Source: Acidobacteriota bacterium (GTDB lineage: Bacteria; Acidobacteriota; Thermoanaerobaculia; Multivoradales; UBA5704). From it: a DNA stretch of 19,936 nt. The notes under the pieces are model-generated. The model was not told the origin of the DNA, did not search any database, and was given only the letters and a program-made list of their open reading frames with translations. How positions within the stretch are numbered: position 1 is the stretch's first letter; each line of letters starts with the position of its first letter. The stretch lies in assembly GCA_040005235.1 (NCBI GenBank), contig JBDTZG010000080.1, positions 1 to 19,936 on the forward strand. Direction: 5' to 3'. The position numbers and the translations under genes were made by a program. This document shows, piece after piece, positions 743 through 17,228 of the stretch.

Positions 743-1373
743 GAGTTTCCTCGTGGGAAGCAATCTCAGAGAAAAGGCGAGAGAGAAGGTCAGGATCCTT
801 GACGCCCGGCGAGCGTTCGACCCGCGAGCAGACGTCGATGAGCAAGGCGCCGCTCTGGTCGACCGCCGCGCGGACGTTGTCGGGACTTATACCGCCGGCT
901 AGGAAAACAGGACGGCCTGCGGCGGCGGCGGCGAACGGCTTGAGCGCCGAGTAGTCCCAAGGCTGACCGGTGCCGCCGACCGCGGGGGCAACCGCGGGGG
1001 CATCGACGAGAAAACCCCAGACCTCCGGGAAGCGTTCAGTCTCTCGGACAGGAACGCCGCGAAACGCCTTGATCGCGCGGCCGGCGAACGGCGCGATCCA
1101 TTCCGGGCTCTCGTCGCCGTGGAATTGGAGCAGATCGAGCCCCAACGCGCCCGCGATCTCTTCGACTTGAGAGGCGGGCGCGTTGACGAACACTCCGACC
1201 AAGCGAGCGCGCCCTTCGACTGCGTCGGCGATCTCCCGCGCCCGTTCGACCGAAACACAACGCGGGCTGCCCGGATAGAAGTTGAGCCCCAGATACGCGG
1301 CGCCCAGCTCCACCGCCAGGCGCGCATCGCCGACGGTCGTAACGCCGCACACCTTCACCTGAACGTTCATCAT
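732..1373 (-). CDS. trpF: Phosphoribosylanthranilate isomerase
   Basis: Motifs [58 protein letters not shown]. Confidence 0.95.
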
Positions 1374-2188
1374 CCCAGCCGCTCCGCACCCGTCATCTCA
1401 GCGAGCAGCGCGCCCGGGTTTTCGGCCAACAACAGCGCCTCGCCGATGAGGAAGGCATGAAACCCGGCATCCATCAAAAGCGCCACATCGCCGGCGTGAC
1501 GGATGCCGCTCTCTGCAACCCGGATCGCACCGAACGGCAGCAGCGGCAGGAGGGTCATCGACCGTTCGAGCGACACGTCGAACGTGCGCAGATCGCGATT
1601 GTTGACGCCCACGATCTCCCACCCCTCCTCGGCCACCGCAACCTTGGCCAGATCGTCGGGGTCGGTCGTCTCGACCAGCGGCACGAGCCCCAGGCCGCGG
1701 GCCTGTCCGGCGTAGTCCTCCAGCTCTGCGGCGGAGAGAAGTGCCGCGATCAGCAGCACGGCGGAGGCCCCGGCGTCGCGTGCGTAGACCAGCTGAACGG
1801 GATCGACGATGAAATCCTTGGCGATCGCGGGCAGGCCGGACGCTTCGCGGCAGGCGGTGAGCAGCTCGTAGGAGCCGAAGAAATGGTCGGGCTCGACGAC
1901 GACCGACAGGCAGGCCGCCCCCCGCTCGGCGTAGAGCCGCGCCTGGGCGATCGGATCGAAGCGATCGCCGACGAATCCCAATCGCGGCGAGCCGCGCTTG
2001 ATCTCGGCGATTATCCCGGGCGCCTGCTGCCGCCGACGCGCGTCAAGCCGCGCGAGGAACTCGTTGTCAGAAGGAGTGCGCGGCGCGCCGTGAGCCAGAG
2101 CCGGAGCCGAGCCGAGGGCGTTCTCTCCCCCCAGTCGCCGTCTCCTTTGATCGACGATTTTCTGCAGCACGTCCGGCGGTGCGCTCAT
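1370..2188 (-). CDS. trpC: Indole-3-glycerol phosphate synthase
   Basis: Motifs IIAEIKRGSP, KDFIVDPVQL, GVNNRDL, VAESGI, LIGEALL. Start placed at ATG 2188 (ATGA overlap with the trpD stop). Confidence 0.95.
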   Translation of the reverse strand: MSAPPDVLQKIVDQRRRRLGGENALGSAPALAHGAPRTPSDNEFLARLDARRRQQAPGIIAEIKRGSPRLGFVGDRFDPIAQARLYAERGAACLSVVVEPDHFFGSYELLTACREASGLPAIAKDFIVDPVQLVYARDAGASAVLLIAALLSAAELEDYAGQARGLGLVPLVETTDPDDLAKVAVAEEGWEIVGVNNRDLRTFDVSLERSMTLLPLLPFGAIRVAESGIRHAGDVALLMDAGFHAFLIGEALLLAENPGALLAEMTGAERLG

Positions 2189-3210
2189 GCTTGGAACCTG
2201 CACAGCTCGTCGAGCTTCCTCGCCGCCGCTCCGGAGCCGAGCGCTTCGCGGGCGAGCGCGGCCCCTCCGATGAGATCCTCCGCGAGCCCTCCGACCCAGA
2301 TTGCCGCCCCGGCGTTCGCGATCACGATGTCGGCGATCGGACCGGACTCTCCGGCGAGAAGGCGCCTCATCGCGATGGCGTTTTCTTCCGGGCCGCCGCC
2401 GGCCAGATCGGCGAGGGTCGCCCGCGCGAGCCCCAGATCCTCGGGTTCGAGGGTGAACGTGCGCACAGTGCCGTTCTTCACTTCGGCAATCTGGGTGGTG
2501 CCTGTCGTCGAGATCTCGTCGAGCCCGTCGTCGCCGTGGACGACCAGCGCGTGCTCCGCTCCCAGATCGGCGAGAACGCGGCCGATCCGCTCGACCAGAT
2601 GCGCGGCGTAAACCCCCATCAGCTGGCGCCTGGCGCCCGCCGGGTTGGTGAGCGGCCCGAGCACGTTGAACACGGTGCGCAGAGCCAGCTCGCGGCGGAC
2701 CGGCATCACCTCGCGCATGGCCGGATGGAGCACCGGCGCGAACAGAAACGCGATGCCGATCTCGTCCAGCGCGCGTCCGGCCACCTCCGGGGTGACGTCG
2801 ATCTTCACGCCGAGTGCCGCGAGCACGTCGGCGCTGCCCGATTTGCTCGACACCGACCGGTTGCCGTGCTTGGCGACCGGCACCCCCGCCGCCGCCGCGA
2901 CCAGCGCCGCCGCGGTCGAGATGTTGAACGTTCCGCGGCCATCGCCGCCGGTGCCGCAGGTGTCGACCACCGAGGTGCGCGAGTGAGGAATGCGCACCGC
3001 CCGGCGGCGCATGGCCGAGGCGGCGCCCGCGATCTCCGCCGGCTCCTCCCCTTTCATCCGCAGCGCGATCAGCAGGGCGGCTTTGACCGGCTCGGACAGC
3101 TCCCCGTCCATCAGGCGGCCGAACAGCTCCTCGGTCTCGTCCCGGGTCAGATGGCCACCGCCCACCAGCCGTTCGAGCGCGTGTTTCGCTTCGAAGGGGG
3201 ATTCGCTCAC
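2185..3210 (-). CDS. trpD: Anthranilate phosphoribosyltransferase
   Basis: Motifs DTCGTGGDG, TFNISTAAA, KHGNRSVSSKSGSAD, RTVFNVLGPLTNP, DGLDEIS. Start placed at GTG 3210 (GTGA overlap with the trpG stop). Confidence 0.96.
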   Translation of the reverse strand: MSESPFEAKHALERLVGGGHLTRDETEELFGRLMDGELSEPVKAALLIALRMKGEEPAEIAGAASAMRRRAVRIPHSRTSVVDTCGTGGDGRGTFNISTAAALVAAAAGVPVAKHGNRSVSSKSGSADVLAALGVKIDVTPEVAGRALDEIGIAFLFAPVLHPAMREVMPVRRELALRTVFNVLGPLTNPAGARRQLMGVYAAHLVERIGRVLADLGAEHALVVHGDDGLDEISTTGTTQIAEVKNGTVRTFTLEPEDLGLARATLADLAGGGPEENAIAMRRLLAGESGPIADIVIANAGAAIWVGGLAEDLIGGAALAREALGSGAAARKLDELCRFQA

Positions 3211-3809
3211 CGCGCGGCTCCGGAGGTCCCGGCGAAAGCCGCGGAGGTCAGACCCAAGAAATTTTCCATCAGCTTCGGCCCCGAGATGGTGAGCACCGAC
3301 TCCGGATGGAACTGCACGCCCCAATAAGGAAGCACGCGGTGGCGCAACCCCATGAGCACGCCGTCGTCGGTCGTCCAAGCGATCGGTTCCAACTCCTCCC
3401 CCAGGGTGTCTTCGCGGACGCAGAGGCTGTGGTACCGGGTCGCCTCGAACGGATCGTCGAGGCCGGCGAACACGCCCTGACCGCCATGGCGAACGGGCGA
3501 GGTCTTGCCGTGCATCAGGCGCGGTGCCCGCTCGACCGTAGCGCCGAACGCCACCCCCATCGCCTGATGGCCGAGACAGACGCCGAGGATCGGCACCGTG
3601 GTCCCGGAGGCGAGCAACTCCAAGCAGATCCCCGCCTCCTCCGGCCGCCCGGGGCCGGGCGAGAGCACGATTCCCGCGGGCTTGCGCGCGAGGAGTGTGG
3701 CGACCGTCTCGGCATCGTTGCGAATCACCTCCACCTCGGTGCCGGTGGCCGCGATCATCTGCACCAGGTTCCAGGTGAAGGAGTCGTAGTTGTCGATCAT
3801 CAGGATCAC
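3207..3809 (-). CDS. trpG: Anthranilate synthase component II (class I glutamine amidotransferase)
   Basis: Motifs MILMIDNYDSFTWNL, SPGPG, GVCLGHQ, RYHSL, GVQFHPES. Confidence 0.95.
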   Translation of the reverse strand: MILMIDNYDSFTWNLVQMIAATGTEVEVIRNDAETVATLLARKPAGIVLSPGPGRPEEAGICLELLASGTTVPILGVCLGHQAMGVAFGATVERAPRLMHGKTSPVRHGGQGVFAGLDDPFEATRYHSLCVREDTLGEELEPIAWTTDDGVLMGLRHRVLPYWGVQFHPESVLTISGPKLMENFLGLTSAAFAGTSGAAR

Positions 3810-5305
3810 GGCCGCTCCTCCAAGCGCTCCGCCAAGGCGACAGCAGCGAGCAGGCCGGCCGCTTTGTTTTCGGTCTCGCGCTGCTCGGAGGCGGGATCGG
3901 AATCGGCGACGATCCCGGCGCCCGCCGTCACCGTGGTCTCTCCTCCCGCCACCACCAAGGTGCGGATTGCGATGCAGGTATCGAGATCGCCCGAAAACGA
4001 GAAGTAGCCGACCGCTCCGGCGTAGGGGCCGCGCGACTCGGGTTCGAGCGAATCGATGATCTCCATCGCGCGGATCTTCGGCGCACCCGAGACCGTGCCG
4101 GCGGGAAAGCAGGCGAGCAGCGCGTCGAGCGCGTCCTTGTCCGCCGCCAGCTCCGCCTCGACCGAAGAGACCAAGTGCATGACGTGACTGTAGCGCTCGA
4201 CGAGCATGAATTCCGGCACCCGCACGCTTCCCGGCGTCGCGACCCGGCCGAGATCGTTGCGGCCGAGATCGACCAGCATCAGATGCTCGGCGCGCTCTTT
4301 GGGATCGGCCGCCAGCTCGTCGGCCAGGCGCTGATCGATTTCCGGGTCGGCGCTCCGCGGCCTCGTCCCCGCAATGGGCCGGGTTTCGATCCGGCGCCCG
4401 GTCTTCCTCACCAGCATCTCGGGGCTCGCCCCGACCAGCGCCAGCTCCGGCATTTCGAGCAGCACCATATAGGGGCTCGGGTTCACCCTCCGGAGCGCCC
4501 GGTAGAGCGCGATCGGCTCAATCGCCCGGGGGATTCCGAATCGCCGTGCGATCACCGCCTGGAAGATGTCGCCCGCCGCGATGTGCTCTTTGGCGATCTC
4601 GACCGCCTGCCGATAGGCCGCACCGTTCAGGCTCGCGCTCTCGGTGTAGGGGGCGAACGCCTCCGGCGTCAACTTCTGATGCGCCGAAAGCGGCGGGATC
4701 GCCACCGCGCCGCTGCCGCCCGCCGCCGTCAACAGCACCTGAAGCCGATCGAGCTGAGCTTCGGCCTGCTCGGCGCTCACCTCACCCTCGATCTCGTTGG
4801 CGATCGCGAGCAGGCGCTGGTACGCGTGGTCGAATGCGAGCACCGCGTCGAACCGGCCGAAGATCGCGACCGGCAGCCCCGCGACGGCCAAGGGCGGACG
4901 GTTCGGCAGCCTTTCCACCAGGCGGATCAGGTCGTAGCCGAACGACCCGACGAACCCGCCGGTAAAAGGCACCGCCCCCATCTCGCCCGGAACGACCGCC
5001 TCGATCCGCGACAGCTCGGCGCGCAGCGCTTCAAGCGGCGGACCCGGACGATCCGAGCGCACGCCCTCGCGCTCGATCTCCAGCCGGTCTTCATACAGCC
5101 GCAGGATCTCGCGCGGCCCGGCGCCCAGGAAGCTGTAGCGCGAGACCCGCTCGCCGCCGGTGACGCTCTCCAGCAGGAACCGAACGGGCGAGACCGCCGC
5201 GAGCCGCCGGTACGCCCCGAGGGGAGTCAGCTCATCGGCGAGCAGCTCGCGGACGTGCGGGAGAGCTTTCTTCTTCGCTGCACTCTTTGCATCACTTGCC
5301 TGCAT
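3806..5305 (-). CDS. trpE: Anthranilate synthase component I
   Basis: Trp feedback-site motifs LLES and NPSPYM; also GASPE, PIAGTRPR, EHLMLVDLGRND, PAGTVSGAPK, AGAGIVADS. Confidence 0.96.
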   Translation of the reverse strand: MQASDAKSAAKKKALPHVRELLADELTPLGAYRRLAAVSPVRFLLESVTGGERVSRYSFLGAGPREILRLYEDRLEIEREGVRSDRPGPPLEALRAELSRIEAVVPGEMGAVPFTGGFVGSFGYDLIRLVERLPNRPPLAVAGLPVAIFGRFDAVLAFDHAYQRLLAIANEIEGEVSAEQAEAQLDRLQVLLTAAGGSGAVAIPPLSAHQKLTPEAFAPYTESASLNGAAYRQAVEIAKEHIAAGDIFQAVIARRFGIPRAIEPIALYRALRRVNPSPYMVLLEMPELALVGASPEMLVRKTGRRIETRPIAGTRPRSADPEIDQRLADELAADPKERAEHLMLVDLGRNDLGRVATPGSVRVPEFMLVERYSHVMHLVSSVEAELAADKDALDALLACFPAGTVSGAPKIRAMEIIDSLEPESRGPYAGAVGYFSFSGDLDTCIAIRTLVVAGGETTVTAGAGIVADSDPASEQRETENKAAGLLAAVALAERLEERP

Positions 5306-5942
5306 GACGCCTCCCCAACTCGGCCGCGACCTCGGCGGAATCGACGCCGCACGCTTCGAGCAGGACCAGCAGATGGTAGAGCAGGTCGGCCGACTCCTCG
5401 CTCAACCGTTGGCGGCGGTCGGGATCTTGCGGGTTCGCACCGAGGAGGACCCCCGCGAGCGCCGCCTCCACCCCTTCTTCGCCGACCTTCTGGGCGATCC
5501 GTTCGGTTCCCTCGTCGAGCAGTCGCGCGGTATAGCTCTTCTCCGGATCCGCACCTCGGCGCGCCGCGATCACCGCCGAGAGCCAGCCCAGCTCCAGCCG
5601 CGCCGGATCGCGGCCCGCGGCGGGATTTTCAAAACAGGTGCGCTCTCCCGTATGGCAGCTGGGACCGTGCGCGCGCACCCGGGCGAGCAGGGCATCGCCG
5701 TCGCAATCGATCCGCAGTTCGACCAGGTCGAGACCGTTGCCGGAGGTCTCCCCCTTGCGCCAGAGGCTCTGGCGCGAACGGCTCCAGAACCAGACCTGAC
5801 CGGTCGCCACCGTCCGTTCGAGCGCCTCGCGGTTCGCCCAGGCGAGCATGCGCACCACACCGGATTCGACCTCCTGGACGATCACGGGAACCAAGCCGTC
5901 CGGGCCGAATCGGACTGCGTCGAGGTCCGGGCTTGGCGTCAT
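5292..5942 (-). CDS. hisIE: Bifunctional phosphoribosyl-AMP cyclohydrolase / phosphoribosyl-ATP pyrophosphatase
   Basis: HisI motifs [31 protein letters not shown]; HisE motifs [25 protein letters not shown]. Confidence 0.95.
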
Positions 5943-6724
5943 AGGTCATCCTCCAGCCGCATCGGAAATCCCCGCGCCGCAAGCTCCCGTTTGATCGCCG
6001 CCACGGTCCAATCCCCCTGATGAAAGATCGAAGCCGCGAGCACCGCGGCGGCTCCCGCCGAGAGCGCCGCCGCCAGATGCTCCGGCGATCCGGCCCCGCC
6101 CGAGGCGATCACCGGCACGTTGACCGCCCCGACCGCCGCCCGCAGAAGGGGAAGATCGTAACCGTCGCGCGTGCCGTCGGCGTCGATGCTGGTGAGCAGG
6201 ATCTCGCCCGCCCCTCGCGCCACCCCTTCCCGAATCCAGGCGAGCGCGTCCTTCCCCGTATTCTCTCGGCCGCCATGGGTCACTACTTCCCAGGTGCCTG
6301 CGGACCGCCGTTTCGCGTCCACCGACAGGACGACACATTGGCTGCCGAACCGGCCGGCCAGGTCGGAGAGCAGCTCCGGCCGGTCGACCGCCGCGGAGTT
6401 GACCGCAAATTTGTCCGCCCCGGCCCGCAGCAAGCGCCGGCCGTCGTCGATCCCGCGCACCCCTCCGCCGACGGTGAGCGGCACGAACGCCCGCTCGGCC
6501 GTCCGCCGCACCCAATCGAGATCGGTGTCGCGCGCCTCCGGCGCCGCGGTAATGTCCAGAAAGACGATCTCGTCCGCTCCTTCGGCCGCGTAGCGCGCGG
6601 CCGCCTCGGCCGGATCGCCCTGGTCGATCAGGTTCTCGAAACGGACCCCTTTCACCACTCGGCCCTCGCGGACGTCGAGGCAAGGGATCACGCGGCGGGC
6701 GAGGCCAGAGAGGAGAGTTGTCAT
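5939..6724 (-). CDS. hisF: Imidazole glycerol phosphate synthase cyclase subunit
   Basis: Motifs [56 protein letters not shown]. Confidence 0.97.
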
Positions 6725-7464
6725 ACGAACTCCTCCCCATGAGCCGCCGCCCGAGCCTCTTCGAGCGTGAACGCTCCGGAGTAGAGCGCCTGGCCGACGA
6801 TCGCGCCCGCGATCTCGGGGTAGACCCGTGCCGCGGCGAGATCATCGAGGGAAGAAACGCCACCGGAAAGGAGGGCCGGTAGGCCGCAGCTCCGAGCGAT
6901 CCGCCGGGCGAGCGCCAGATTCGGACCACCCATCATGCCGTCGCGATCGACGTCCGTCACCAACACCGCGGGGCAGGGGCAACCGATCAAAGCGGCCGTC
7001 AGCTCAGCGAGCGAACGCGCCGCCCCCTCCCGCCAGCCGGAGATGCGCACCTCGCCGCTCGTTCCGGAAAGATCGAGCGCCGGCACCAGACGACCCGGGT
7101 GGGCCGCGGCGATCTCGGCGAAGAGATCGGGGTCGCGGGCGACGAGCGAGCCCACCACCACCCGCTCCGCGCCCAGCGCGAGCGCGGCTTCGATCGATGC
7201 CCGATCGCGCAAACCGCCTCCGAGCTGAATCGCGGTTCCCTTTCCAATCATCCGTTCGATCATTCGTCCGATCAAATCGCGTTGCGGCGCCTCGCCCAAC
7301 GCGGCATCCAGATCGACGACATGGACGAGGCCAACCCCCGCGGCGGCGAATTGCTCCAGCAGGATAACGGGATCGGCTCCAACCGTCGTCCGCCGGGAGT
7401 CGTCTCCCTGTCGCAAGCGGACGGCCTGGCCGCCGCGCAGATCGATCGCGGGCAGAAGCTCCAT
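6721..7464 (-). CDS. hisA: ProFAR isomerase
   Basis: Motifs [59 protein letters not shown]. Start is ATG 7464 (TGATG overlap with hisH) or GTG 7467. Confidence 0.94.
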
Positions 7465-8084
7465 CACTCGCCCCTTTCTGACAACGCCAGGAAGTTCGCC
7501 AGGATCTTCAGCCCCGAGGGCCCGCTGCGCTCCGGATGAAACTGGCAGCCGAGCACCCGGCCGCGGCCGGCCACCGAGGTGAAGCTCCGGCCATGAAGGG
7601 TGCGAGCGAGCGTCACCTCGTCCGCTCCTTCGGGAGCGAAGCTGTGAACGAAATAGACCCATGGGTCGGGGGGAAGCCCAGCGAGCAGGGGATGCTCTAC
7701 CAGATCGTGCAGGCGGTTCCAGCCGATGTGCGGCAACGGCACCCCGTCGGGCAGACGGACGATGTGCCCGGGGAGGAGGCCCAAACCGTCGGTGGTGCCG
7801 AACTCCTCGCTCGACTCGAACAACAGCTGGAATCCGACGCAGATCCCGAGCAGCCAGGCGCCCTCGGCCAGTGCCGCGCGCAGCGCCGATTCGATCCCGC
7901 CGCGAAGCGCTTCGCGCGGCGGTCCGAAAGCACCCACCCCGGGCAGGATCAGGCGGCGCGAGGCCGCGATCGCCTCTGGATTTGCGGTCACCCTGGACTC
8001 TCCGCCCACGTGCTCGATTGCCCGTACGACGTTGCCGAGGTTGCCGACGCCGAGATCGACGATCGTGGTCGATTCGACGCTCAT
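7464..8084 (-). CDS. hisH: Imidazole glycerol phosphate synthase glutaminase subunit
   Basis: Motifs VDLGVGNL, LILPGVGAF, GICVGFQLL, PHIGWN, YFVHSF, QFHPERS. Start ATG 8084 (ATGA overlap). Confidence 0.95.
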   Translation of the reverse strand: MSVESTTIVDLGVGNLGNVVRAIEHVGGESRVTANPEAIAASRRLILPGVGAFGPPREALRGGIESALRAALAEGAWLLGICVGFQLLFESSEEFGTTDGLGLLPGHIVRLPDGVPLPHIGWNRLHDLVEHPLLAGLPPDPWVYFVHSFAPEGADEVTLARTLHGRSFTSVAGRGRVLGCQFHPERSGPSGLKILANFLALSERGE

Positions 8085-9874
8085 GCGGACAACGTCCCTT
8101 TGGTGCTCGGCACGTCGGAAGAACCGGGCCGGATCGCAATCGCCTGGCGCAGCGCGAGCGCCGCCGCCTTGAACGCCGCCTCCGCCGCGTGGTGGCCGTT
8201 CCTCGCCGAAAGCACGTCGAGATGGAGCGTCAGCCAGCCCCGATCGGCGAGCGCGGCGAAGTAATCGGCGACCAGCGAAAGCGGAAACTCCGCGGTGACC
8301 CAAGTATCGAGAAGCTCCGGCGGCACGCTCCAATGAAACGACCCGCGGCCGGAGAGATCGACCACCGCGCGCGCCAGAGCCTCGTCGAGCGGGGCGTAGG
8401 CATGGGCGAAGCGGACGAGGCCACGCCGGTCCCCCAACGCCGAAGCGATCGCCTCGCCGATCGCGATCCCCACGTCTTCGACCGTATGGTGCAGATCGAC
8501 GTGCGTGTCGCCCGAGGCCTCCAAGTCGATGCCCAAGCCGCCGTGGGTGCACAGCGCCTCCAGCATGTGGCCGAAGAACCCGTTCGGCACCCCGATCCGC
8601 CGAATGCCGCCATCGAGCGAGAGGGAAAGTTCGATCCGGGTTTCTTTCGTCGAGCGCGAGACGGTGGCCCTCCTGGGCTCGCCAGGCTCCAGCCTGGCGC
8701 CTTTGGATTCGATCGACCGAGCTTCTGCCACTCCTCGAACAGCGCCAGGCTGGAGCCTGGCGAGCCCAGGCGTCTGCGGCGAACAACCCAGCGCCGCCTC
8801 GACCGCCCGCAGCGCCCCACCGCTTCCGACCGACACCCTCAGACATCCGGCGAGACCGGGATACCCCCCCACGTCGCGCACCAGAATCCCCTGTTCCGCC
8901 AACCCGTCGCGAATCGCCCTCGCCGCGGCCCGCCGCGCCGCTTCGTCCTCTCCCGCCGCCCGGACGAGCAGGAAATTCGCCTCCGAGGGGAACACCTCCA
9001 AACCCGCCGCCGCGAGCGCCCTCGCCCACTGCGGCCGGCGGCCGAGGATCGTGCGCACGCGTCGCGTCGCCGCTGCTTCGCCTTCCAAGGCCGCCCTTCC
9101 TGCCGCGGCGCTCGCGCGGTTCAGGTTGTAAGGGAGCTTGATCTTAATCAGCTCCGTCACCAGGCGCGGATCGGCGAGCAGGTAGCCCAACCGCAACCCG
9201 GCGAGCGACCAGGCTTTGGAAAATGTCCGGAAGATCAGCAGGTTCGGGTAGCGCGCGAGCAGCGGCCGGTAGTCGTACCGGCAGAACTCGGCATACGCAT
9301 TGTCGAGCAGCAGCGGGCCGGTCATCCGTTCGAGCAGCGCCTCCACCTGCTCGACGGTAGCGGCGGCGCCCGTCGGATTGTTCGGCGTGCAGAGCACCAC
9401 GGGGCGCTCCGGAAAGCGTTCCACCTCGGCGAGCATCTCGTCCATCGGCAGGGCGATATCCGCGCGAGGCGGCAGGAAGACCGGCTTCGCTCCCGCCTTT
9501 TGAATGAACATCCGATAGAGACCGAAGCAGGGCTCTGCGACGAGCACCTCGCCGCCGATCGTCGTCAGCCCTTCGAGCGCGAGCGCAAGCAGCTCGTTCG
9601 AGCCGTTGCCGACCAGCACCCCCTCCCAAGGCCAAGCGTGGAGCGCGCCCAGCTCTCGGCGCAGCGCGTCGGCATGGAAATCCGGATAGCGCGCCCAGGA
9701 TTCTTCGGCGAGCGCTTGCGCCACCGCCACCTTCAGCCGGCGCGGCAGCTCCCACGGCACTTCGTTCTGATCGAGCTTCCACCGGCATTCGGTCTGCTCC
9801 AGGTGGTACGCCGGAAGCGCACGCAGCTCCGGCCGAATCAGCAAGGCGGGATCGAGAGTCCGAGGCGGTTTCAT
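8081..9874 (-). CDS. hisCB: Fused histidinol-phosphate aminotransferase (HisC, N-terminal) and imidazoleglycerol-phosphate dehydratase (HisB/IGPD, C-terminal), 597 aa
   Basis: HisC motifs KLDQNE, RYPD, VGNGSNE, PNNPTG, DNAYAEF, RTFSKAWSLAGLRLGY. The frame continues without a stop into IGPD motifs RSTKETRI, DLHHTVEDVG, PLDEAL, DLSGR, NGHHAAEAAFKA, VPSTKG. Start ATG 9874 (ATGA overlap with hisD). Confidence 0.92.
   Translation of the reverse strand: MKPPRTLDPALLIRPELRALPAYHLEQTECRWKLDQNEVPWELPRRLKVAVAQALAEESWARYPDFHADALRRELGALHAWPWEGVLVGNGSNELLALALEGLTTIGGEVLVAEPCFGLYRMFIQKAGAKPVFLPPRADIALPMDEMLAEVERFPERPVVLCTPNNPTGAAATVEQVEALLERMTGPLLLDNAYAEFCRYDYRPLLARYPNLLIFRTFSKAWSLAGLRLGYLLADPRLVTELIKIKLPYNLNRASAAAGRAALEGEAAATRRVRTILGRRPQWARALAAAGLEVFPSEANFLLVRAAGEDEAARRAAARAIRDGLAEQGILVRDVGGYPGLAGCLRVSVGSGGALRAVEAALGCSPQTPGLARLQPGAVRGVAEARSIESKGARLEPGEPRRATVSRSTKETRIELSLSLDGGIRRIGVPNGFFGHMLEALCTHGGLGIDLEASGDTHVDLHHTVEDVGIAIGEAIASALGDRRGLVRFAHAYAPLDEALARAVVDLSGRGSFHWSVPPELLDTWVTAEFPLSLVADYFAALADRGWLTLHLDVLSARNGHHAAEAAFKAAALALRQAIAIRPGSSDVPSTKGTLSA
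8672..8770. repeat. REP-like inverted doublet (REPIN-like), 99 bp, in frame within the hisC-hisB linker
   Basis: Arms 8672-8700 (CCTGGGCTCGCCAGGCTCCAGCCTGGCGC) and 8742-8770 are perfect 29-bp reverse complements around a 41-bp spacer. Each arm has an internal hairpin GCCAGGC-N4-GCCTGGC. Confidence 0.9.
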
Positions 9875-11190
9875 GCGAGCCTCCTGCGAGCCGCGGCGGC
9901 GTGGGCGGGAAGTCCCTCGGCATCGGCGAGCGCCGCTGCGGCACCCGCTCCGGCCTGGGCGGCCTCGCTGGAGAAACGGACCCGATGGAACCGGCGGACG
10001 AAATCCTCGACGTCGAGCCCGGAGGCGAATCGCGCGGAGCCGCAGGTCGGCAGCACGTGGCTCGGTCCCGCGATGTAGTCGCCGAACACCTCGGGGGTTA
10101 GTGGCCCCAGGAAAACCGCTCCAGCGTTGGCGATCCGCGGCGCCAACGCTTCCGCCCGCACTCCCACCAGCTGCAAATGTTCGGGCGCGATCCGTTCGAT
10201 CGCGAAGACCGCCTGGTCGTCGGTCGCGGCGATCAAGGCGACGCCGAACCGCGCGAGCGAAGCGCGGGCGGTCTCTTCGGTCGAGAGCGTCGGAAGTTGG
10301 CGTTCCAGCTCTTCCCGCACCGCTTGGGCGAAATTTCGATCGAACGTCACCAGCACCGCCGCCGCCCGCGGATCGTGCTCCGCTTGAGCGAGCAGATCGG
10401 CCGCGACCGAACCGGCCTCGACGCGCGGGTCGGCCGGATCCGCCGCGATCACCACCTCGCTCGGCCCCGCAAGGCCGTCGATCGCCACGTCGCCCTGCAC
10501 CTGCTGCTTCGCCGCCGCCACCCAGGCGTTGCCCGGCCCGAGGATCTTGTCCACCCGCGGCACGCTCTCGGTGCCATAGGCAAACGCCGCGATCGCGTGC
10601 GCGCCCCCCATTCCCCACACCTCGTCGATCCTCAAGCGCGCGAGCGTGAATCGAAGCGCCGCGCTCGCGTGGTAGGCGGCAGGAGGTGTGGCGACCGCGA
10701 TCGAAGGAACGCCCGCCAGGCGCGCCGGCAGCGCGGTCATCACGACCGTCGAAGGGTAGATCGCCCGGCCGCCCGGCACGTACAGGCCGACGCGGGCGAG
10801 CGGACGCACCACCTGCTCGATCTCGACCCCTTCGTGCGTGAGCGAAAAGCCGCGCGGCGCACGCCCGGCCCCTTCCAAATAGTAGCGCTCGACCGCCGCG
10901 ATCGCCCGTTCGAGCGCTGCCTCGAAGCCCGCGGGCAAGCTCGCACGATCCCGTTCCGGGTCGACCGGGAAGTGCCGCAGATCGGCGCCGCGGGCGACCG
11001 TCACCCCGTCCAGCCGGGCGACCAGCTCGACCAGCGCCGCATCCCCTTCGCGGCGGACGCGCGCGACGATCCGCGCCGCTTCCGCCATCAGCTTGCGGTC
11101 GAGCACGACACCGCCCCGCCGCTCCAGGCGTTCGAGCGCGCGCTCCCCTGCCGCCGTGCCGAGTGCCGAAGACTTGAGCATGCCGCTCAC
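9871..11190 (-). CDS. hisD: Histidinol dehydrogenase
   Basis: Motifs GLYVPGG, GGAHAIAAFAYGTESV, GPGNAWV, IDGLAGPSEV, DLLAQAEHD, APEHL, GDYIAGPSHVLPT, AEGLPAH. Start is GTG 11190 (GTGA overlap) or ATG 11181. Confidence 0.95.
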   Translation of the reverse strand: MSGMLKSSALGTAAGERALERLERRGGVVLDRKLMAEAARIVARVRREGDAALVELVARLDGVTVARGADLRHFPVDPERDRASLPAGFEAALERAIAAVERYYLEGAGRAPRGFSLTHEGVEIEQVVRPLARVGLYVPGGRAIYPSTVVMTALPARLAGVPSIAVATPPAAYHASAALRFTLARLRIDEVWGMGGAHAIAAFAYGTESVPRVDKILGPGNAWVAAAKQQVQGDVAIDGLAGPSEVVIAADPADPRVEAGSVAADLLAQAEHDPRAAAVLVTFDRNFAQAVREELERQLPTLSTEETARASLARFGVALIAATDDQAVFAIERIAPEHLQLVGVRAEALAPRIANAGAVFLGPLTPEVFGDYIAGPSHVLPTCGSARFASGLDVEDFVRRFHRVRFSSEAAQAGAGAAAALADAEGLPAHAAAARRRLA

Positions 11191-11813
11191 AGAGCCAGCT
11201 CCGCCGCTTCGAGCCGGGCCACCCACTCGTTCAAAACCGCGCGATGGCGCTGGTAGGCGGCGCGGTGCACGACCAGGCAGGGATGGATCACGTCGAGCAC
11301 CTCCACTTCGATCAGCCCGTTCTCGCGCAACGTCCGGCCGGTCTGCACGATGTCGAGCGCCAGGTCGGCGAGATCGAGCATCGGCGCCAGCTCGACCGAG
11401 CCCGACAATTCGAGGATCTCGGCGCCCCAGGAGCGCTCGGCGACCATCCGGCGCGCGGTCTTCGGGTATTTGGTCGCGAGACGGACCTGCTCCCCCGCCT
11501 TTGGCAGCTCACGGCTCTTGCCGATCAGAGAAAAATGGCAGGCGCCGTCGCGCAATCGGGCGGGCACGAGCAGGTCGCCGTCCACCTCACCCAGAACGTC
11601 GGAGCCGACCACGCCGCAATCGGCGATGCCGCGCTCGACGTACAGCGGCAGGTCCCAATCCTTCAAGAAAAGCACTTCGACCTCGCCGCCGTTCAACCGG
11701 GTCGAGAGCGCGCGCGTCTCGGGATCGAGCTTTTCGACCTCGACCCCCGCGACGCCGAACGCCGCGAGCGCCGCCTCCCGAATACGCCCCTTGGGCAGCG
11801 CGAGCCGGATCAT
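11187..11813 (-). CDS. hisG: ATP phosphoribosyltransferase, short form
   Basis: Motifs LALPKGR, GVVGSDVL, ATKYP, LSGSVELAP, DIVQTGRTLRENGL. At 208 aa it lacks the C-terminal regulatory domain, as expected for a HisZ partner. Confidence 0.95.
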   Translation of the reverse strand: MIRLALPKGRIREAALAAFGVAGVEVEKLDPETRALSTRLNGGEVEVLFLKDWDLPLYVERGIADCGVVGSDVLGEVDGDLLVPARLRDGACHFSLIGKSRELPKAGEQVRLATKYPKTARRMVAERSWGAEILELSGSVELAPMLDLADLALDIVQTGRTLRENGLIEVEVLDVIHPCLVVHRAAYQRHRAVLNEWVARLEAAELAL

Positions 11814-12808
11814 GACGGCACCACCGCGGTCAAACCATCGAGCCCGAGCGTGAAGCCGACGGCGGGAAGTTTGACTCCAAGCTGATCGAACAGCCGGTTG
11901 TAGCGCCCGCCGCCGCCGATTTCGAGCCCGCCTGCGCCGGCATAGCCCCGAAACACGAGACCGTCGTAGTAGGAGCGCTGGTGAGAGTCGGAAGTCCCGA
12001 GCTGCGGATCGAGGGTCAGTTGGGCGAACTCGGCGAGATCGACGGCCATCGAGATCTCAGGATGCAGCTCTGAAAGGGCGGCCACGGTTTCAATGCAGCG
12101 CGAGAGCCGCTCGCCCATGGCACCCAGCGCCGCCGGATCTGCCGGAGCGCCTTTATCGACCACTTCGAGCAAAGCCGCCGAACCGCCCAGCCGGCGCACC
12201 GCCGAACGCTCGCGGCGCGCGACGGCCGAGGCGAGGGCGGGGAGCGCGGGGAGATCACCGGCCCCGCCCGGTCCGCTCGCCCCGCCCGCTCGAATCAGCA
12301 GCTCGTCGAGCGCCCCGGCAAAGCCGACGATCACCGTCGGCCGCGGCACGCCGGTCGAGGCGAGCAAATCGAGAAACAGGCGCAACACCTCGGCCTCCGC
12401 CCCCTCGCCATCCTCCCCCAGAAGCTCCGCCCCCACCTGATAGCTCTCGCGCAGCCGGCCGGCCCGCTCCTCCGCCCAGCGGACGACGTCGCCGCGATAA
12501 AACAGCCGCAGGGGAAGAGAAAGACCGCCAAGGCGCGGCGCGATCAGCCGCGCGAGAAGCGGGGTGAAGTCCGAGCGCAGGGCGAGCACCTCGCCGTCGC
12601 GATCGACGAACCGATACAGCTCGCCCCGGCTCGCCGGAGAGAGCAAAGCCTCGTACGGCTCGGCATAATCGAGGATCGGCAGGACGACCTCGGAGTATTC
12701 GTTCTCGACGAGTCGGCCGACCAAGGCCTCCTCAAGGCTCTTCCGCCGGGCGGCGGCCCCGAACAGCAGAGCCGTAACCCCGATCGGCAAGCCGGTCGAG
12801 ATCCTCAC
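11810..12808 (-). CDS. hisZ: ATP phosphoribosyltransferase regulatory subunit (HisRS paralog)
   Basis: Motifs YRFVDRDGEVLALRSDFT, RLFYRGDV, QVGAEL, YYDGLVF, GGGRYNRL, PAVGF. GAGGA RBS before the GTG; adjacent to short-form hisG. Confidence 0.92.
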   Translation of the reverse strand: MRISTGLPIGVTALLFGAAARRKSLEEALVGRLVENEYSEVVLPILDYAEPYEALLSPASRGELYRFVDRDGEVLALRSDFTPLLARLIAPRLGGLSLPLRLFYRGDVVRWAEERAGRLRESYQVGAELLGEDGEGAEAEVLRLFLDLLASTGVPRPTVIVGFAGALDELLIRAGGASGPGGAGDLPALPALASAVARRERSAVRRLGGSAALLEVVDKGAPADPAALGAMGERLSRCIETVAALSELHPEISMAVDLAEFAQLTLDPQLGTSDSHQRSYYDGLVFRGYAGAGGLEIGGGGRYNRLFDQLGVKLPAVGFTLGLDGLTAVVPS

Positions 12809-12853
12809 GAGTTTTCCTCGCCAAATCCCTCGGGAAATCCGTATGTAGCGCTC

Positions 12854-12885
12854 AAAACAAAAACTCCTTCCGGGGCCGGAAGGAG
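12854..12885 (-). terminator. Intrinsic terminator (attenuator) in the operon leader
   Basis: mRNA sense CUCCUUCCG-GCCC-CGGAAGGAG (9-bp stem) followed by UUUUUGUUUU, ending 45 nt before the hisZ start. Confidence 0.92.
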
Positions 12886-12989
12886 ATTTCGAAAACCGAT
12901 CGCGTTCTCGTCCCGGGCCTTAAGGCCAAGGACAACAGCGTCCCGGCCTAGCTGGAGGTCTGATGATGGTGATGCCACCGCCACGCTGC
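12874..12989 (-). promoter_or_regulatory. Alternative RNA pairings of the attenuator (protector and antiterminator)
   Basis: Antiterminator: GGCCGGGA (12948-12941) pairs with UUCCGGCC (12881-12874) in the terminator 5' arm and loop. Protector: GCAGCGU (12989-12983) pairs with ACGCUGU (12941-12935). An intervening hairpin centres on GGCCUUAAGGCC. Found by eye, not by folding software. Confidence 0.7.
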
Positions 12990-13073
12990 AGACACCGAAG
13001 ACGCGACGACACCCTCGCCGATCGACAGGATCGAGAGAGGTGCGCGGTTCTGGGTGCGGTTGGCGGTCATCAT
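12948..13073 (-). CDS. His/Trp operon leader peptide, 41 aa: MMTANRTQNRAPLSILSIGEGVVASSVSAAWRWHHHHQTSS
   Basis: Manual translation. The run TGG CGG TGG CAT CAC CAT CAT (12982-12962) contains the only Trp and His codons of the ORF. It lies between a promoter-like sequence and a terminator. The start (ATG 13073 or 13070) has only a weak RBS. Confidence 0.85.
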   Translation of the reverse strand: MMTANRTQNRAPLSILSIGEGVVASSVSAAWRWHHHHQTSS

Positions 13074-13094
13074 CAAAAGTCCGTGACGGAGTGG

Positions 13095-13124
13095 AGTGTC
13101 TTCCGGCGGGGTGTGGGTTGTCAA
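13095..13124 (-). promoter_or_regulatory. Sigma70-type promoter for the leader and his-trp operon
   Basis: Perfect -35 TTGACA (13124-13119), 18-bp spacer, and a weak -10 GACACT (13100-13095), immediately after the aroDE stop codon. Confidence 0.6.
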
Positions 13125-13125
13125 G

Positions 13126-14619
13126 CTACCCCGCCCCCAACAACTCCCGCGCCAGATCCACCGGCATCTCTAGCCCGGTCATCCCCCGGAACTGACCGAA
13201 CGCCTGGGAGAGCAGGACCTCGCGGCCATCGATCGCGACAGCGCCGCGGGCGATTGCGGCAGCCAGGAGAGGCGTCGGCTCCAGGCTCTCGGCGCGGTAC
13301 ACGAGATCGACGACCACCGTTCCGGGGCGGATGCTCTCGACCGCGAACGGCAGCGGCTCGTCGTCTTTTCGGCCGAGCGAGGTCGCTTGGACCAGGATGT
13401 CGAAGCCGGAGGGGTCGAAACTTTCGAGTGGCGCGAACGCGAGGTGAAGCTCGGCCGCCGCGAGGCGCCCTTTCGCTTCGTTCCGATTCACCAGGGTCAC
13501 GCGGGCACCGGCTGCGGCGAGTCCGACCGCAGCGGAACGGCCCGCCCCGCCGGAGCCGATGACCGCCGCGCTCTTGCCCTTCACGTCGACGCCGCGGGCG
13601 CGGATCGGCAACACCACCCCTTCCGGATCGGTCGACTCTGCCTCCCATACGCCGTCGCGGAGGATCAGAGTATTCGCCGCACCGATCCGCTCGGCGAGCG
13701 GGCTCGACGCTCCCGCCACGGCCAGGGCCGATTCTTTGTGCGGCGCGGTGACCGACAGGCCGAGGAGCGGCAGGCCGATCTCCTCAAACACCGCCCCTTC
13801 GACCACGTCCAGCCAGAAGTCGCCGAAACCGTCGACGTGAAACGGCAGGTAGAGCGCCGGGATTCCGAGCGCGCGGTAGCAGCCGTTGTGCAGGCGTGGC
13901 GATAGGGAGTGGAAGACGGGATTGCCGACGATGCCGAACAGCGCCCGGATCGGCGGCAGCTCGGGCAGGCCGTAGTCGCCACGCAGTTTGGCGATCGAAA
14001 GCTGGCCGGGAGCACCGGGATTTTCGCTTGCCGAGCCGTAGACGACCGGCGCGCCGAGGCGCGGCGCCACCAGGCGGGTCCAGACGCCCGGCAGCCCCGA
14101 AGCGAACGCCGCCACGTCGCGCCGGCCGACTTCGGCAAGCAATTGGAGCGGCGCGAAGGCTTCCCCAGGCTGAATCGCCGCCGGGATCAACTTGTAGAGG
14201 AACGCCGGTTCGCCGAGCATCCGTTCGAGCCGCGCCTGAAGGCCGGGCAGCGGTGTCGGCCCACCGTGCCACGAGAGGATGCGCCGCTCGGGCGAGATGG
14301 CGGACAGCAGTCCGGCCGCGAGATCCCGCTCGGATTCGAGGTCGACCAAGTCATAGCCGACCGAAGCCTCGGCGATTCGCTTCTTCCGCTTGTCCGGAGC
14401 GGACTCCCCCGCGCCGCCTTCGTTCCTGCTGCGTAGCGTGTAGAGCAACCGGCCGGGAAATCGCGCCCGCAACGTCTCGGCCGGCAGATCGCCCAGCAGA
14501 TCCGCCCGCATTTCGAGCACGTCCGCCTGCGTCGCCAACCGATCGAGATCGGCATCACTCGGCAGCTCGGTGAGGGTCGCGATCAGGGTCGCGCGGTCGG
14601 GGGTGTCAGGAGCCTCCAT
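13126..14619 (-). CDS. aroDE: Fused type I 3-dehydroquinate dehydratase / shikimate dehydrogenase
   Basis: AroD motifs LEMRAD, YTLRSRNEGG, ILSWH, YKL, APGQLS. AroE motifs GNPVFHSLSPRLHN, SVTAPHK, GAANTL, STD, GSGGAGRS, VNR, DLVY, DGREVL. Start placed at ATG 14619. Confidence 0.9.
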   Translation of the reverse strand: MEAPDTPDRATLIATLTELPSDADLDRLATQADVLEMRADLLGDLPAETLRARFPGRLLYTLRSRNEGGAGESAPDKRKKRIAEASVGYDLVDLESERDLAAGLLSAISPERRILSWHGGPTPLPGLQARLERMLGEPAFLYKLIPAAIQPGEAFAPLQLLAEVGRRDVAAFASGLPGVWTRLVAPRLGAPVVYGSASENPGAPGQLSIAKLRGDYGLPELPPIRALFGIVGNPVFHSLSPRLHNGCYRALGIPALYLPFHVDGFGDFWLDVVEGAVFEEIGLPLLGLSVTAPHKESALAVAGASSPLAERIGAANTLILRDGVWEAESTDPEGVVLPIRARGVDVKGKSAAVIGSGGAGRSAAVGLAAAGARVTLVNRNEAKGRLAAAELHLAFAPLESFDPSGFDILVQATSLGRKDDEPLPFAVESIRPGTVVVDLVYRAESLEPTPLLAAAIARGAVAIDGREVLLSQAFGQFRGMTGLEMPVDLARELLGAG

Positions 14620-14677
14620 CAAACCCCACGCTCGCTGAGCTCGCGGACCGTCAGGGAAAAACGTCGAACTTTCACCA

Positions 14678-14687
14678 TAGGATTCTA
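14678..14687. promoter_or_regulatory. Possible overlapping divergent -10 elements between aroDE and the argE-like gene
   Basis: TAGGAT on the plus strand (14678-14683) overlaps TAGAAT on the minus strand (14687-14682) in the only AT-rich patch of the intergenic region. No clear -35 elements. Confidence 0.3.
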
Positions 14688-14732
14688 GTGCAGGTGGCCA
14701 CGGTCGCCCCCTCGCTTCCGCGAAAGCCCCCC

Positions 14733-15902
14733 ATGCCCACACTCCTCTCAGACTCCGACCTCCTTGCCCGGATCGTGGCGTTCGATACGGTCAGCTCGAA
14801 ATCGAACCTGCCGCTCGCGGATTTCATCGCGGATTACTTGGACCGGCCCAACGTGCGGATCGAGCGGCATCCCAGCCCGGACGGGACGAAGGCGAATCTA
14901 ATCGTCCGCGTCGGGCCGGAGCGGGACGACCGGGAGGGCTTGGCGCTCTCCGGGCACATGGACGTCGTGCCCGCCGGGGAGCCCGGGTGGCAGAGCGATC
15001 CCTTCACGTTGACCGACGGAGGAGATCGGTGGATCGCTCGGGGCGCCTGCGACATGAAGGGGTTCGTGGCACTGGCGGTGAACCTGGCGGCCGAAACCTC
15101 GGAGCGCGCCGGCAAGCTCTCCGCGCCGCTCGCACTCGTGCTCACCTACGACGAGGAGGTGGGCACCCTCGGCGCGCGCTGGTTGGCGGAAGACTATTCC
15201 GCGATCGACTCCCTTCCCCGCTCGATGATCGTCGGCGAGCCGACTTCACTTGCGGTGGTCGGCCTGCACAAGGGTCATTTGAAAATGCGCGCGACGTTCT
15301 CCGGCAAGAGCGCCCACTCGGGGTACCCACACCTAGGGGCCAACGCGATCGTTCCCGCCGGACGGGCGATCGTGGCGCTTGCCGAACTGGGCGCGGTGCT
15401 TCTGAAGGAGGGGGCTTCAAGCAGCGCGAGCTTTCCCGACGTGCCGTTCGCGGCGATCAACGTCGCCACCGTACACGGCGGCTCGGCGATCAACGTCGTG
15501 CCGGAACGCTGCGTCGTCGAGATCGGCGTGCGCACGATGCCGGGCCTCGAATCGAACGCCCTCGCGCCGAGGGTCGAAGCGGCGATCGCCTCAGTGCCCC
15601 TCCCCTCAGGCGTCACGGTGCGAACGGAGATCCTTTCGGACAGCCCGCCGATGATGCTGGATCCCGAGGCACCGATCCACCGCCTGCTCTGCGAGCTGAC
15701 CGGCCAAGTAGGGACGCGGAGCGTCGGCTTCGCCACCGACGCCGGCTGGCTCGCTCGCGCGGGGTTCGATTGCGCGGTGTGGGGCCCGGGGACGATCGAG
15801 GTCGCCCACAAGCCGAACGAGTGGATGCCTAAGCCTGAGTACGCCCAGGCGCGTACGCTCCTCGAACAGGCGATCGCGCGGTTCTGCGAGGGAGAGGCAT
15901 GA
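14733..15902 (+). CDS. argE: M20-family amidohydrolase, acetylornithine deacetylase-like; possibly an N-formylglutamate deformylase
   Basis: Motifs SGHMDVVP, RGACDMKG, YDEEVG, VGEPT, HKG, GKSAHS, GGSAINVVP, GPG, AHKPNE. Start ATG 14733. The family is secure; the substrate is not. Confidence 0.8.
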   Translation: MPTLLSDSDLLARIVAFDTVSSKSNLPLADFIADYLDRPNVRIERHPSPDGTKANLIVRVGPERDDREGLALSGHMDVVPAGEPGWQSDPFTLTDGGDRWIARGACDMKGFVALAVNLAAETSERAGKLSAPLALVLTYDEEVGTLGARWLAEDYSAIDSLPRSMIVGEPTSLAVVGLHKGHLKMRATFSGKSAHSGYPHLGANAIVPAGRAIVALAELGAVLLKEGASSSASFPDVPFAAINVATVHGGSAINVVPERCVVEIGVRTMPGLESNALAPRVEAAIASVPLPSGVTVRTEILSDSPPMMLDPEAPIHRLLCELTGQVGTRSVGFATDAGWLARAGFDCAVWGPGTIEVAHKPNEWMPKPEYAQARTLLEQAIARFCEGEA

Positions 15903-17191: not shown

Positions 17192-17228
17192 TTCTCGGGG
17201 AGTAAGATCGCGCCTAAGAGCGCGAATC

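Follow-up and report, generated by a model that had tools for sequence, protein, structure and literature searches.

Transcription attenuation is usually taught as an arrangement in which one leader serves one pathway, or one branched pathway, and the locus described here raises the question of what such a leader looks like when the operons for two unrelated amino acids have been joined. The locus lies in a contig of 19,936 nucleotides (nt) from an Acidobacteriota bacterium (GenBank assembly GCA_040005235.1, contig JBDTZG010000080.1), and we refer to the whole of this stretch as the window. The host, a soil acidobacterium, is represented by a metagenome-assembled genome (MAG) of the Thermoanaerobaculia. 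On the minus strand of the window, a joint histidine and tryptophan biosynthesis operon is preceded by a short open reading frame (ORF) whose translation ends in a cluster of tryptophan (Trp, W) and histidine (His, H) residues, WRWHHHH, and a preliminary description of the window had proposed that this ORF encodes the leader peptide of a dual attenuator. We conclude that the element is very probably a ribosome-mediated transcription attenuator which senses charged tRNA-Trp and charged tRNA-His and controls a single his+trp transcript, an interpretation that is well supported by comparison with the corresponding sequences of related genomes.

The leader upstream of the his–trp operon

All of the elements of the putative attenuator are found on the minus strand within positions 12854–13124 (see Table 1 for the coordinates of individual features). 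The leader ORF is situated between a candidate promoter and hisZ, the first structural gene, and carries a cluster of codons for the two end products of the operon. The translation of its 41 codons, MMTANRTQNRAPLSILSIGEGVVASSVSAAWRWHHHHQTSS, has no W or H outside the terminal cluster, just as the preliminary description had it. The leader is followed, ahead of hisZ, by a predicted intrinsic terminator, and here the terminator scan recovered the 9-bp hairpin and U tract described earlier, while the gene which begins 47 nt beyond the U tract and has its own GAGGA was identified as hisZ by its match to PF13393. Modelling of the RNA adds a predicted antiterminator that is mutually exclusive with the terminator and would depend on the position of the ribosome. 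A run of seven codons with at least two W and at least four H occurs just once in six frames of the whole genome (140 contigs, 6,224,448 bases and a GC content of 65.9%), and that one occurrence is at this site.

The promoter candidate, TTGACA followed after an 18-nt spacer by GACACT, was also found where it had been reported, and in the window the leader ATG is 21 nt past the -10 candidate. An exact TTGACA is located upstream of the leader in 31/31 related loci, about 18 nt from a -10-like hexamer which in many of them is TGTAAT, TTTAAT, TCTAAT or TCTACT at the place of GACACT.

Downstream of the leader, Pfam and NCBIfam matches give the gene order hisZ, hisG, hisD, hisC-hisB, hisH, hisA, hisF, hisIE, trpE, trpG, trpD, trpC, trpF and trpB, which together with the ORF coordinates bears out the joint operon that had been claimed. 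The start of trpE (5305) overlaps the end of hisIE (5292) by 14 nt, which leaves no space in which the trp genes could have a control region of their own. Each of the his and trp genes is present as a single copy and all are in this operon (tblastn with 16 query proteins against the 140-contig genome of the host; the extra matches were distant paralogues only, at 39% for trpE and 34% for trpG).

Homologous leaders in related genomes

HisZ was located in 41 genomes from the same genus, family and order, from which 31 places were taken with long flanks, making 32 places with the addition of the window. At 31 of these 32 hisZ places we found a short ORF whose tail is rich in H or in both W and H, and the sole place without a leader was a second, divergent hisZ copy in G036. 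In most genera an aroD–aroE fusion (aroDE) is 12–57 nt from hisZ and the unit reads aroDE-hisZGDCBHAFIE-trpEGDCFB, with the leader upstream of aroDE; members of the window's genus instead have the promoter and leader between aroDE and hisZ.

A covariance model (R1) built from 24 of these leaders had its only strong match in the window's genome at this site, with 122.8 bits, and the next full-length match there scored 15.8 bits. Searches with R1 gave a match at E ≤ 0.01 in 44 of 151 genomes sampled from the class, and in a sample of 151 genomes of the phylum nothing beyond the class matched except a tRNA with a terminator (G196), which was rejected. Twenty of the class-level matches were examined and these comprised 13 leaders of his and/or trp units, four leaders rich in phenylalanine and tyrosine (Phe/Tyr, F/Y) codons, and three matches inside coding sequence (G132, G180 and G107) which were discarded; a match outside these 20, in G085, proved to be one more Phe/Tyr-rich leader, and another, G000:C66:58135-58191 (E = 0.77), was set aside because there was no leader there. 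The set of 45 leaders used below consists of the 31 from the hisZ places, the 13 from the R1 class search, and one more from a scan for ORFs upstream of aroDE (G054).

We note that Phe/Tyr-rich leaders with a similar chain of hairpins and a terminator were seen at about positions 400–560 of the oriented loci L085 (G054), L087 (G162), L090 (G116), L091 (G093) and L094 (G085), with tails such as NWFYYGYYT, FAFYYRYDN, AYYYGFYT, FAYSYRYFT and FRFYFNYFM. The gene directly behind them has an N-terminus that resembles chorismate mutase (assigned by eye). In addition, L076 (G031:C1:387196-404714) has at 401–3200 a second copy of the leader, QAWWAHGHGKG, which is followed by low-identity fragments of aroDE, hisZ and hisG, apparently a duplicate of the operon's first part that has since decayed.

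The order and spacing of W and H differ among genera (WRWHHHH, WGWWPVHHH, HWWWHGHAH and RHWHVHH), and the last His codon is 1–5 codons from the stop, usually three, in 31 leaders (four in the window). A hairpin with a T-run is found 52–68 nt past the stop in 25/31. The pattern of conservation bears on the possibility that the ORF encodes a functional small peptide, such as a His-rich metal binder or an arrest peptide, whose W/H motif would be important at the level of the protein. Members of the genus share a well-conserved N-terminal stretch of 26 residues, and leaders of the window's family often end in (S/A)-V-(S/T) (e.g. TCC GTG AGC as the last three codons). Outside the genus, however, nothing of the peptide is conserved but the W/H cluster and how far it lies from the stop, no family was matched at E values up to 10 in Pfam and NCBIfam, the composition of the cluster follows the downstream genes, and the stop codon keeps a constant place relative to the RNA switch described below. 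We therefore regard a function for the peptide itself as exceedingly improbable.

Sensor codons and the gene content of the operon

We tabulated the final 14 codons of each of the 45 leaders, a stretch of 42 nt that ends at the stop, and compared them with the genes that follow. One or more W codons together with two or more H codons are present in 40/45, which bears on the test proposed earlier of whether a W/H cluster is conserved upstream in related genomes. These 40 leaders include 30 from verified his+trp operons, seven in which the contig is cut before trp would be visible, one degenerate duplicate (G031b), and two from aroDE-trp operons without his genes. Both W and H codons are present in 30/30 operons in which his and trp genes were verified in one co-directional cluster (21 among the gene maps of the hisZ places and nine among the R1 class-search loci).

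The four leaders from units without trp genes (G025, G036a, G040 and G054a) are all H-only, and the expectation that W codons would be present only when trp genes are attached was upheld. In G025 and G054a the unit runs from hisZ to hisIE and the leader has HHHHHH in each case; in G036a it runs from hisZ to hisA, with hisF-hisIE-trp sited elsewhere; and in G040 the leader has HHRH and the hisIE-trp cluster is on a different contig, where a long opposite-strand frame, taken for a gene, is found between this cluster and a peptidase gene further upstream. These cases come from three families, and as the genomes are related they represent few independent events. The converse arrangement is seen in G054c, where the leader NWWWYC has Trp codons only and is found ahead of aroDE-trpE. 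This genome (G054) has three separate leaders, one H-only (his), one W-only (aroDE-trpE) and one F/Y (chorismate mutase). W-only leaders were not seen upstream of trpE in G025, G009 and G014, upstream of hisF-hisIE-trp in G036 or of hisIE-trp in G040, or, within the stretch examined, in four of the five f14 genomes, G054 alone having one.

In the 45-leader sample the W codons track linkage to trp without exception, and the H codons track linkage to his in 34 his-containing units and persist in two of the three units without his genes. Both kinds of codon are concentrated in the reading frame of the leader, which holds 78 of the 86 TGG triplets (78/1/7 across frames 0/1/2) and 154 of the 169 CAY triplets (154/1/14). 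The share of CAT among His codons is 0.61 in the leaders compared to 0.40 in the operon genes, a gap too small to interpret.

These results also bear on whether this is a plain hisL-like leader in which the Trp codons are incidental and the supply of tryptophan is without effect. Such a reading would be in keeping with the sole Rfam similarity of the window leader, which is to His_leader (RF00514; 26 bits, E = 0.073, at 12855–12972 on the minus strand, below the gathering score of 49), with the excess of His over Trp codons in most leaders, and with the single W of one member of the genus, G004 (ARGWHHHHH). We consider it very unlikely, as it sits poorly with the presence of W in every verified his+trp operon and its absence from all of the units without trp, with the preference of TGG for the leader frame, and with the W-only leader ahead of aroDE-trpE in G054, and Trp accounts for just 0.88% of the 4778 codons of the operon's own genes (His accounts for 1.8%). 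The attenuator of joint specificity remains our preferred interpretation, and the RNA downstream of the cluster can be examined in its light.

A predicted five-segment RNA switch

When the leaders are aligned at the stop codon, five segments are found to be common to them: GCCGGG(ac), GTCCCGGC, CCCGGGACGAGAG, CCTCCTTCCGG, and CCGGAAGGAGG then TTTTCGTTTT (the window segments are listed in Table 1). Neighbouring segments pair to give helices 1:2, 2:3, 3:4 and 4:5, the last being the terminator, and adjacent helices are mutually exclusive. The predicted hairpin energies in the window are −13.9 (1:2), −14.2 (2:3), −15.9 (3:4) and −14.9 (4:5) kcal/mol. A window transcript that spans the stop codon and segments 1 to 4 folds with 1:2 and 3:4 paired (−31.7 kcal/mol), and when begun 13 nt later to mimic a ribosome on the stop codon, it folds with 2:3 paired and most of segment 4 unpaired. 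This truncated-transcript model puts the probability of pairing between segments 3 and 4 at 0.84 versus 0.09 for the window, with mean values of 0.54 versus 0.23. The gap between the stop and segment 1 is 0–2 nt in 29/31 loci. None of the segments identified in the window is formed by the control codons.

The alternative structures are retained by the relatives. In an alignment of 39 leaders, the combination of helices 2:3 and 4:5 is paired in 94.6% of cells compared to 40–61% when the partners are slid by 1–3 columns, with double changes in 10 pairs (34 cells), and the combination of 1:2 and 3:4 is paired in 91.7% of cells compared to 39–71% when slid, with double changes in six pairs (13 cells). 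Helix 3:4 alone is paired in 93.7% of cells, and the terminator helix in 96.9% with compensatory change at 8/11 pairs. An unfitted MAFFT alignment of 24 leaders gave similar values for pairing of 94.7% (2:3 and 4:5) and 91.1% (1:2 and 3:4).

In one relative (L042), the TCCGTG of the leader tail could pair with a CGCGGA that lies between segments 2 and 3 (noted by eye in this one sequence), and an outer helix may extend hairpin 1:2. We also note that the 3' arm of the terminator hairpin at 12864–12886 (GGAAGGAGG) is Shine-Dalgarno-like and the 5' arm anti-Shine-Dalgarno-like, and that this hairpin is near-invariant across the order.

The nature of these arms raises the possibility that the switch acts mainly through translation, mRNA stability or Rho, with the 3' arm of the hairpin, GGAAGGAG(G), serving to hide a Shine-Dalgarno-like sequence. 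The resemblance of the two arms to Shine-Dalgarno and anti-Shine-Dalgarno sequences extends to nearly all of the relatives, the hairpins of G034, G025, G040 and G033 have no clear T-run, and in G025 the GGAGG of the hairpin sits a few bases ahead of an ATG. In the window, however, the hairpin is followed by TTTTTGTTTT, and hisZ is 47 nt further on with a GAGGA of its own, and a T-run is present in 25/31 relatives. On this evidence we consider a switch that acts mainly in one of these ways to be unlikely, and prefer attenuation through intrinsic termination.

Proposed mechanism and points against it

Under the mechanism we propose, transcription would start from the conserved TTGACA promoter and the 41-codon leader would be translated towards its stop codon, where segment 1 of the RNA switch starts. 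With Trp and His both plentiful, a ribosome that reaches the stop would cover segment 1, allowing 2:3 to pair and leaving segment 4 free to form the 4:5 terminator, and transcription would end about 47 nt ahead of hisZ. A stall at one of the two Trp codons or one of the four His codons, which are 17 to 35 nt upstream of segment 1, would allow 1:2 to pair instead, after which the 3:4 antiterminator would form and the polymerase would read on into hisZ...trpB. A ribosome is commonly said to reach some 12–13 nt past the first base of the codon in its A site, and given the distance from the cluster to the stop, a stalled ribosome would leave segment 1 free. Since a stall at either kind of codon would have the same outcome for the RNA, the logic would be that of an OR gate, a behaviour which is suggested by the geometry of the leader. 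We infer leader translation, the stall, the timing of ribosome and polymerase, and the response to the amino acids from the arrangement of these elements.

We also favour, with rather less confidence, a broader reading in which the Thermoanaerobaculia share a modular scaffold made up of the promoter, a short leader, the five-segment switch and the CCTCCTTCCGG terminator, the sensor codons having been rewritten at each fusion or split of the operons, and in which W and H together form a true two-input OR gate. His codons would then be assigned to his operons, Trp codons to aroDE-trpE, Trp and His codons to the aroDE-his-trp superoperon, and Phe/Tyr codons to chorismate mutase.

A number of observations weigh against the proposed mechanism and are collected here. 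Two aroDE-trp operons without his genes keep spaced His codons, G032 having three (HVHLH, in the leader ARWRSHVHLHGA) and G127 two (HLH, in HLHEGWWRDRS), and as a result the earlier claim that the control codons match the end products exactly holds for the 30/30 his+trp operons but is not universal. In G032 (L073) aroDE is followed directly by trpE and the his block is missing, while its congener G168 (L074) has the full aroDE-his-trp arrangement, and the likeness of their leaders (RWRSHVHLH and GWWRLHVHTH, respectively) suggests a recent excision of the his genes. It should be noted that the sequences are related and that the leader counts are not counts of independent events. Furthermore, a clear T-run after the hairpin is missing in 6/31 relatives (including G034, G025, G040 and G033).

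Similar caution applies to the initiation of transcription and translation. A consensus promoter scan of 12300–13700 called no promoters, as GACACT matches TATAAT at only 3/6 positions, and the promoter call therefore rests on conservation. There is also no strong Shine-Dalgarno sequence before the leader ATG in the window. An untranslated leader would read through under the scheme proposed here, and the E. coli trp and his leaders behave otherwise when untranslated.

The analysis of RNA structure adds further points of this kind. The alignment of 39 leaders was model-based and had been fitted to helices 1:2 and 4:5, though not to 2:3 or 3:4, and in the MAFFT alignment of 24 leaders there was little covariation and the combination of 1:2 and 3:4 did no better than shuffles. 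The near invariance of the segments within the order limits the amount of covariation. In the truncated-transcript model the switch exceeded 0.2 in only 23/39 leaders, and four (L057, L061, L073 and L075) clearly went in the opposite direction. A whole-leader model in which the ribosome was represented by a mask gave probabilities of segment 4 being paired of 0.64 versus 0.36 in the window and 0.65–0.69 versus 0.57 on average over 26 leaders; this model discriminates poorly because the terminator dominates the equilibrium in every state (0.88–0.93).

Comparison with known attenuators

One close likeness to the window leader is hisL of E. coli and Salmonella, which also has a short ORF with a run of His codons, alternative hairpins, and an intrinsic terminator before the first his gene, and the cmscan alignment of the window to RF00514 spans the whole model (positions 1–126). 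Unlike hisL, which has seven His codons, the window leader has four as well as the Trp codons, its first gene is hisZ and the operon runs on into trp, and there are five segments with segment 1 at the stop codon, in a different phylum. Five further Rfam matches (snoRNA, plastid intron and L31 leader) were dismissed with E values of 0.3–8, and Trp_leader (RF00513) gave no match at E values up to 10 within 12500–13500. With trpL of E. coli the window leader has in common a pair of closely spaced Trp codons late in a short ORF that precedes a terminator/antiterminator switch, and the trp leaders of Actinobacteria and Sinorhizobium are similar in this respect, according to the accessible portions of two reports (PMC6614838 and PMC1262725). 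The window differs from trpL in having Trp and His codons together in one leader, and in that trpE is 7.5 kb downstream, behind nine his genes.

Leader peptides with codons for several amino acids are familiar from thrL, ilvL (ilvGMEDA) and ivbL (ilvBN), in which a shortage of any one of them relieves termination, and the window leader likewise has codons for at least two amino acids (two Trp and four His). In those systems the amino acids come from one branched or linked pathway, whereas in the window they come from separate pathways (his, 12808–5292; trp, 5305–2) joined by operon fusion. The His and Trp pathways are separate and are known to share only the precursor phosphoribosyl pyrophosphate (PRPP) and glutamine amidotransferase chemistry.

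A further parallel is provided by aromatic supraoperons, in which aromatic genes and a his-related gene are found together under attenuation. That of B. subtilis differs in being controlled by the TRAP protein without a leader peptide, and includes only hisC (hisH_b) and not the whole his pathway. Other supraoperons with predicted attenuators appear in the available part of PMC1173090, which lists no His+Trp leader. Finally, the leaderless poly-Cys short ORFs of mycobacteria (in the part of bioRxiv 10.1101/834739 that is available) are similar in that an ORF near the 5' end senses one amino acid through its codons, and several relatives of the window leader have the ATG 7–11 nt past the -10; in the window the ATG is further away, and the amino acids and the lineage are different.

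The mechanism itself is known, and we rate the pairing of His with Trp as what is new here. The preliminary description had claimed that no His+Trp leader was known, and no such leader, nor attenuation of a his-trp operon, was found in the full-text literature that was searched, including the accessible portions of PMC4833913, PMC2965389, PMC9413887 and PMC1173090; subscription reviews and several other relevant subscription papers lay outside this search, and the absence of an earlier His+Trp leader from print is not established. The predicted attenuators of Acidobacteriota are said to have no assigned functions in the part of PMC2965389 we could consult, and the present locus would extend leader-peptide attenuation to this phylum. 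As a result of operon fusion, one leader appears to read two amino acids that are unrelated. If this is true, the expression of some 15 genes from two unrelated pathways would be set by one OR gate, and no earlier leader peptide would be known that integrates end products unrelated to each other. The element would also be a compact natural two-input sensor. The fused, split, his-only and trp-only units of the relatives, in which the regulatory codons track gene content, act as natural controls, and make it testable how regulation is rebuilt when operons merge.

Features of the window and neighbouring genes

Table 1. Coordinates of the putative attenuator, the his–trp operon and the adjacent aroD-aroE gene in the window.
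Feature	Position	Strand	Evidence and remarks
-35 hexamer TTGACA	13119..13124	(-)	Sequence; begins 1 base past the aroD-aroE stop codon
-10 candidate GACACT	13095..13100	(-)	Sequence; 18-nt spacer from the -35
Leader ORF	12948..13073	(-)	ATG at 13073, 41 sense codons, TAG at 12950-12948; peptide ends AWRWHHHHQTSS
Trp control codons TGG CGG TGG	12975..12983	(-)	W codons at 12983-12981 and 12977-12975
His control codons CAT CAC CAT CAT	12963..12974	(-)	Sequence
Segment 1 (GGCCGGGAC)	12940..12948	(-)	Begins with the G of the TAG stop
Segment 2 (GTCCTTGGCC)	12924..12933	(-)	Partner of segment 1 or segment 3
Segment 3 (GGCCCGGGACGAGA)	12906..12919	(-)	Partner of segment 2 or (antiterminator) segment 4
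Segment 4 (TCTCCTTCCGG)	12876..12886	(-)	Terminator 5' arm
Segment 5 (CCGGAAGGAG)	12864..12873	(-)	Terminator 3' arm
Terminator hairpin and U tract	12854..12885	(-)	9 pairs (6 G-C), 4-nt loop, then TTTTTGTTTT
U tract TTTTTGTTTT	12854..12863	(-)	Terminator scan
hisZ, first structural gene	11810..12808	(-)	GTG start at 12808; Pfam PF13393
hisG, hisD, hisC-hisB, hisH, hisA, hisF, hisIE	5292..11813	(-)	Pfam, ORF coordinates, tblastn map; neighbours overlap or abut
hisC and hisB in a single open frame	8081..9868	(-)	Histidinol-phosphate transaminase, residues 12-350; imidazoleglycerol-phosphate dehydratase, residues 399-593
trpE, trpG, trpD, trpC, trpF, trpB	2..5305	(-)	Pfam, ORF coordinates; trpB cut by the contig end
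aroD-aroE fusion (3-dehydroquinate dehydratase and shikimate dehydrogenase)	13126..14742	(-)	Pfam, NCBIfam, gene maps

Several minor features of the leader transcript may be added. The leader opens with ATGATG (13068–13073), a sequence that could base-pair with the CAUCAU in the His codons (12963–12968), and an ATGATG start is found in 12/31 leaders; in the minimum-energy fold of the whole leader from the window, the start region pairs with the W/H codon region. In L041, L043, L050, L056, L062 and L040 the leader ATG is merely 7–11 nt past the -10-like hexamer, a spacing found in several genera, and their leader mRNAs may be leaderless or nearly so.

One of the 20 sequencing runs that hold any part of 12300–13400 is an RNA library, and in this soil metatranscriptome a single 173-nt contig spans 12899–13071, covering the leader ORF and segments 1–3. 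Nothing in this library corresponded to hisZ, the terminator or aroDE, to which we attach no weight. The contig has 12 differences and therefore derives from a relative, and we regard it as a weak hint that the leader is expressed, given that contigs cannot reveal ends or strand and that DNA may contaminate the RNA library. Two of the DNA runs (X1 and X2) were possibly the source of the window and are not independent of it.

Within the operon, the best NCBIfam match of hisZ is TIGR00443 with 180.7 bits, which is below the curated cut-off of 271.65, and hisG is of the short form (208 aa). The absence of a stop between hisC and hisB suggests that they are translated as a HisC–HisB fusion protein. 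The aroD-aroE gene is ahead of the promoter in the window's genus and in most relatives is the first gene behind the leader; the sequences of relatives begin to align no earlier than about residue 49 of the frame, which puts the probable start near 14598. The genes that diverge from aroDE (14688–19367 on the plus strand) encode an M20 peptidase, an amidohydrolase and a large acyl-CoA dehydrogenase, and are apparently unrelated to the operon.

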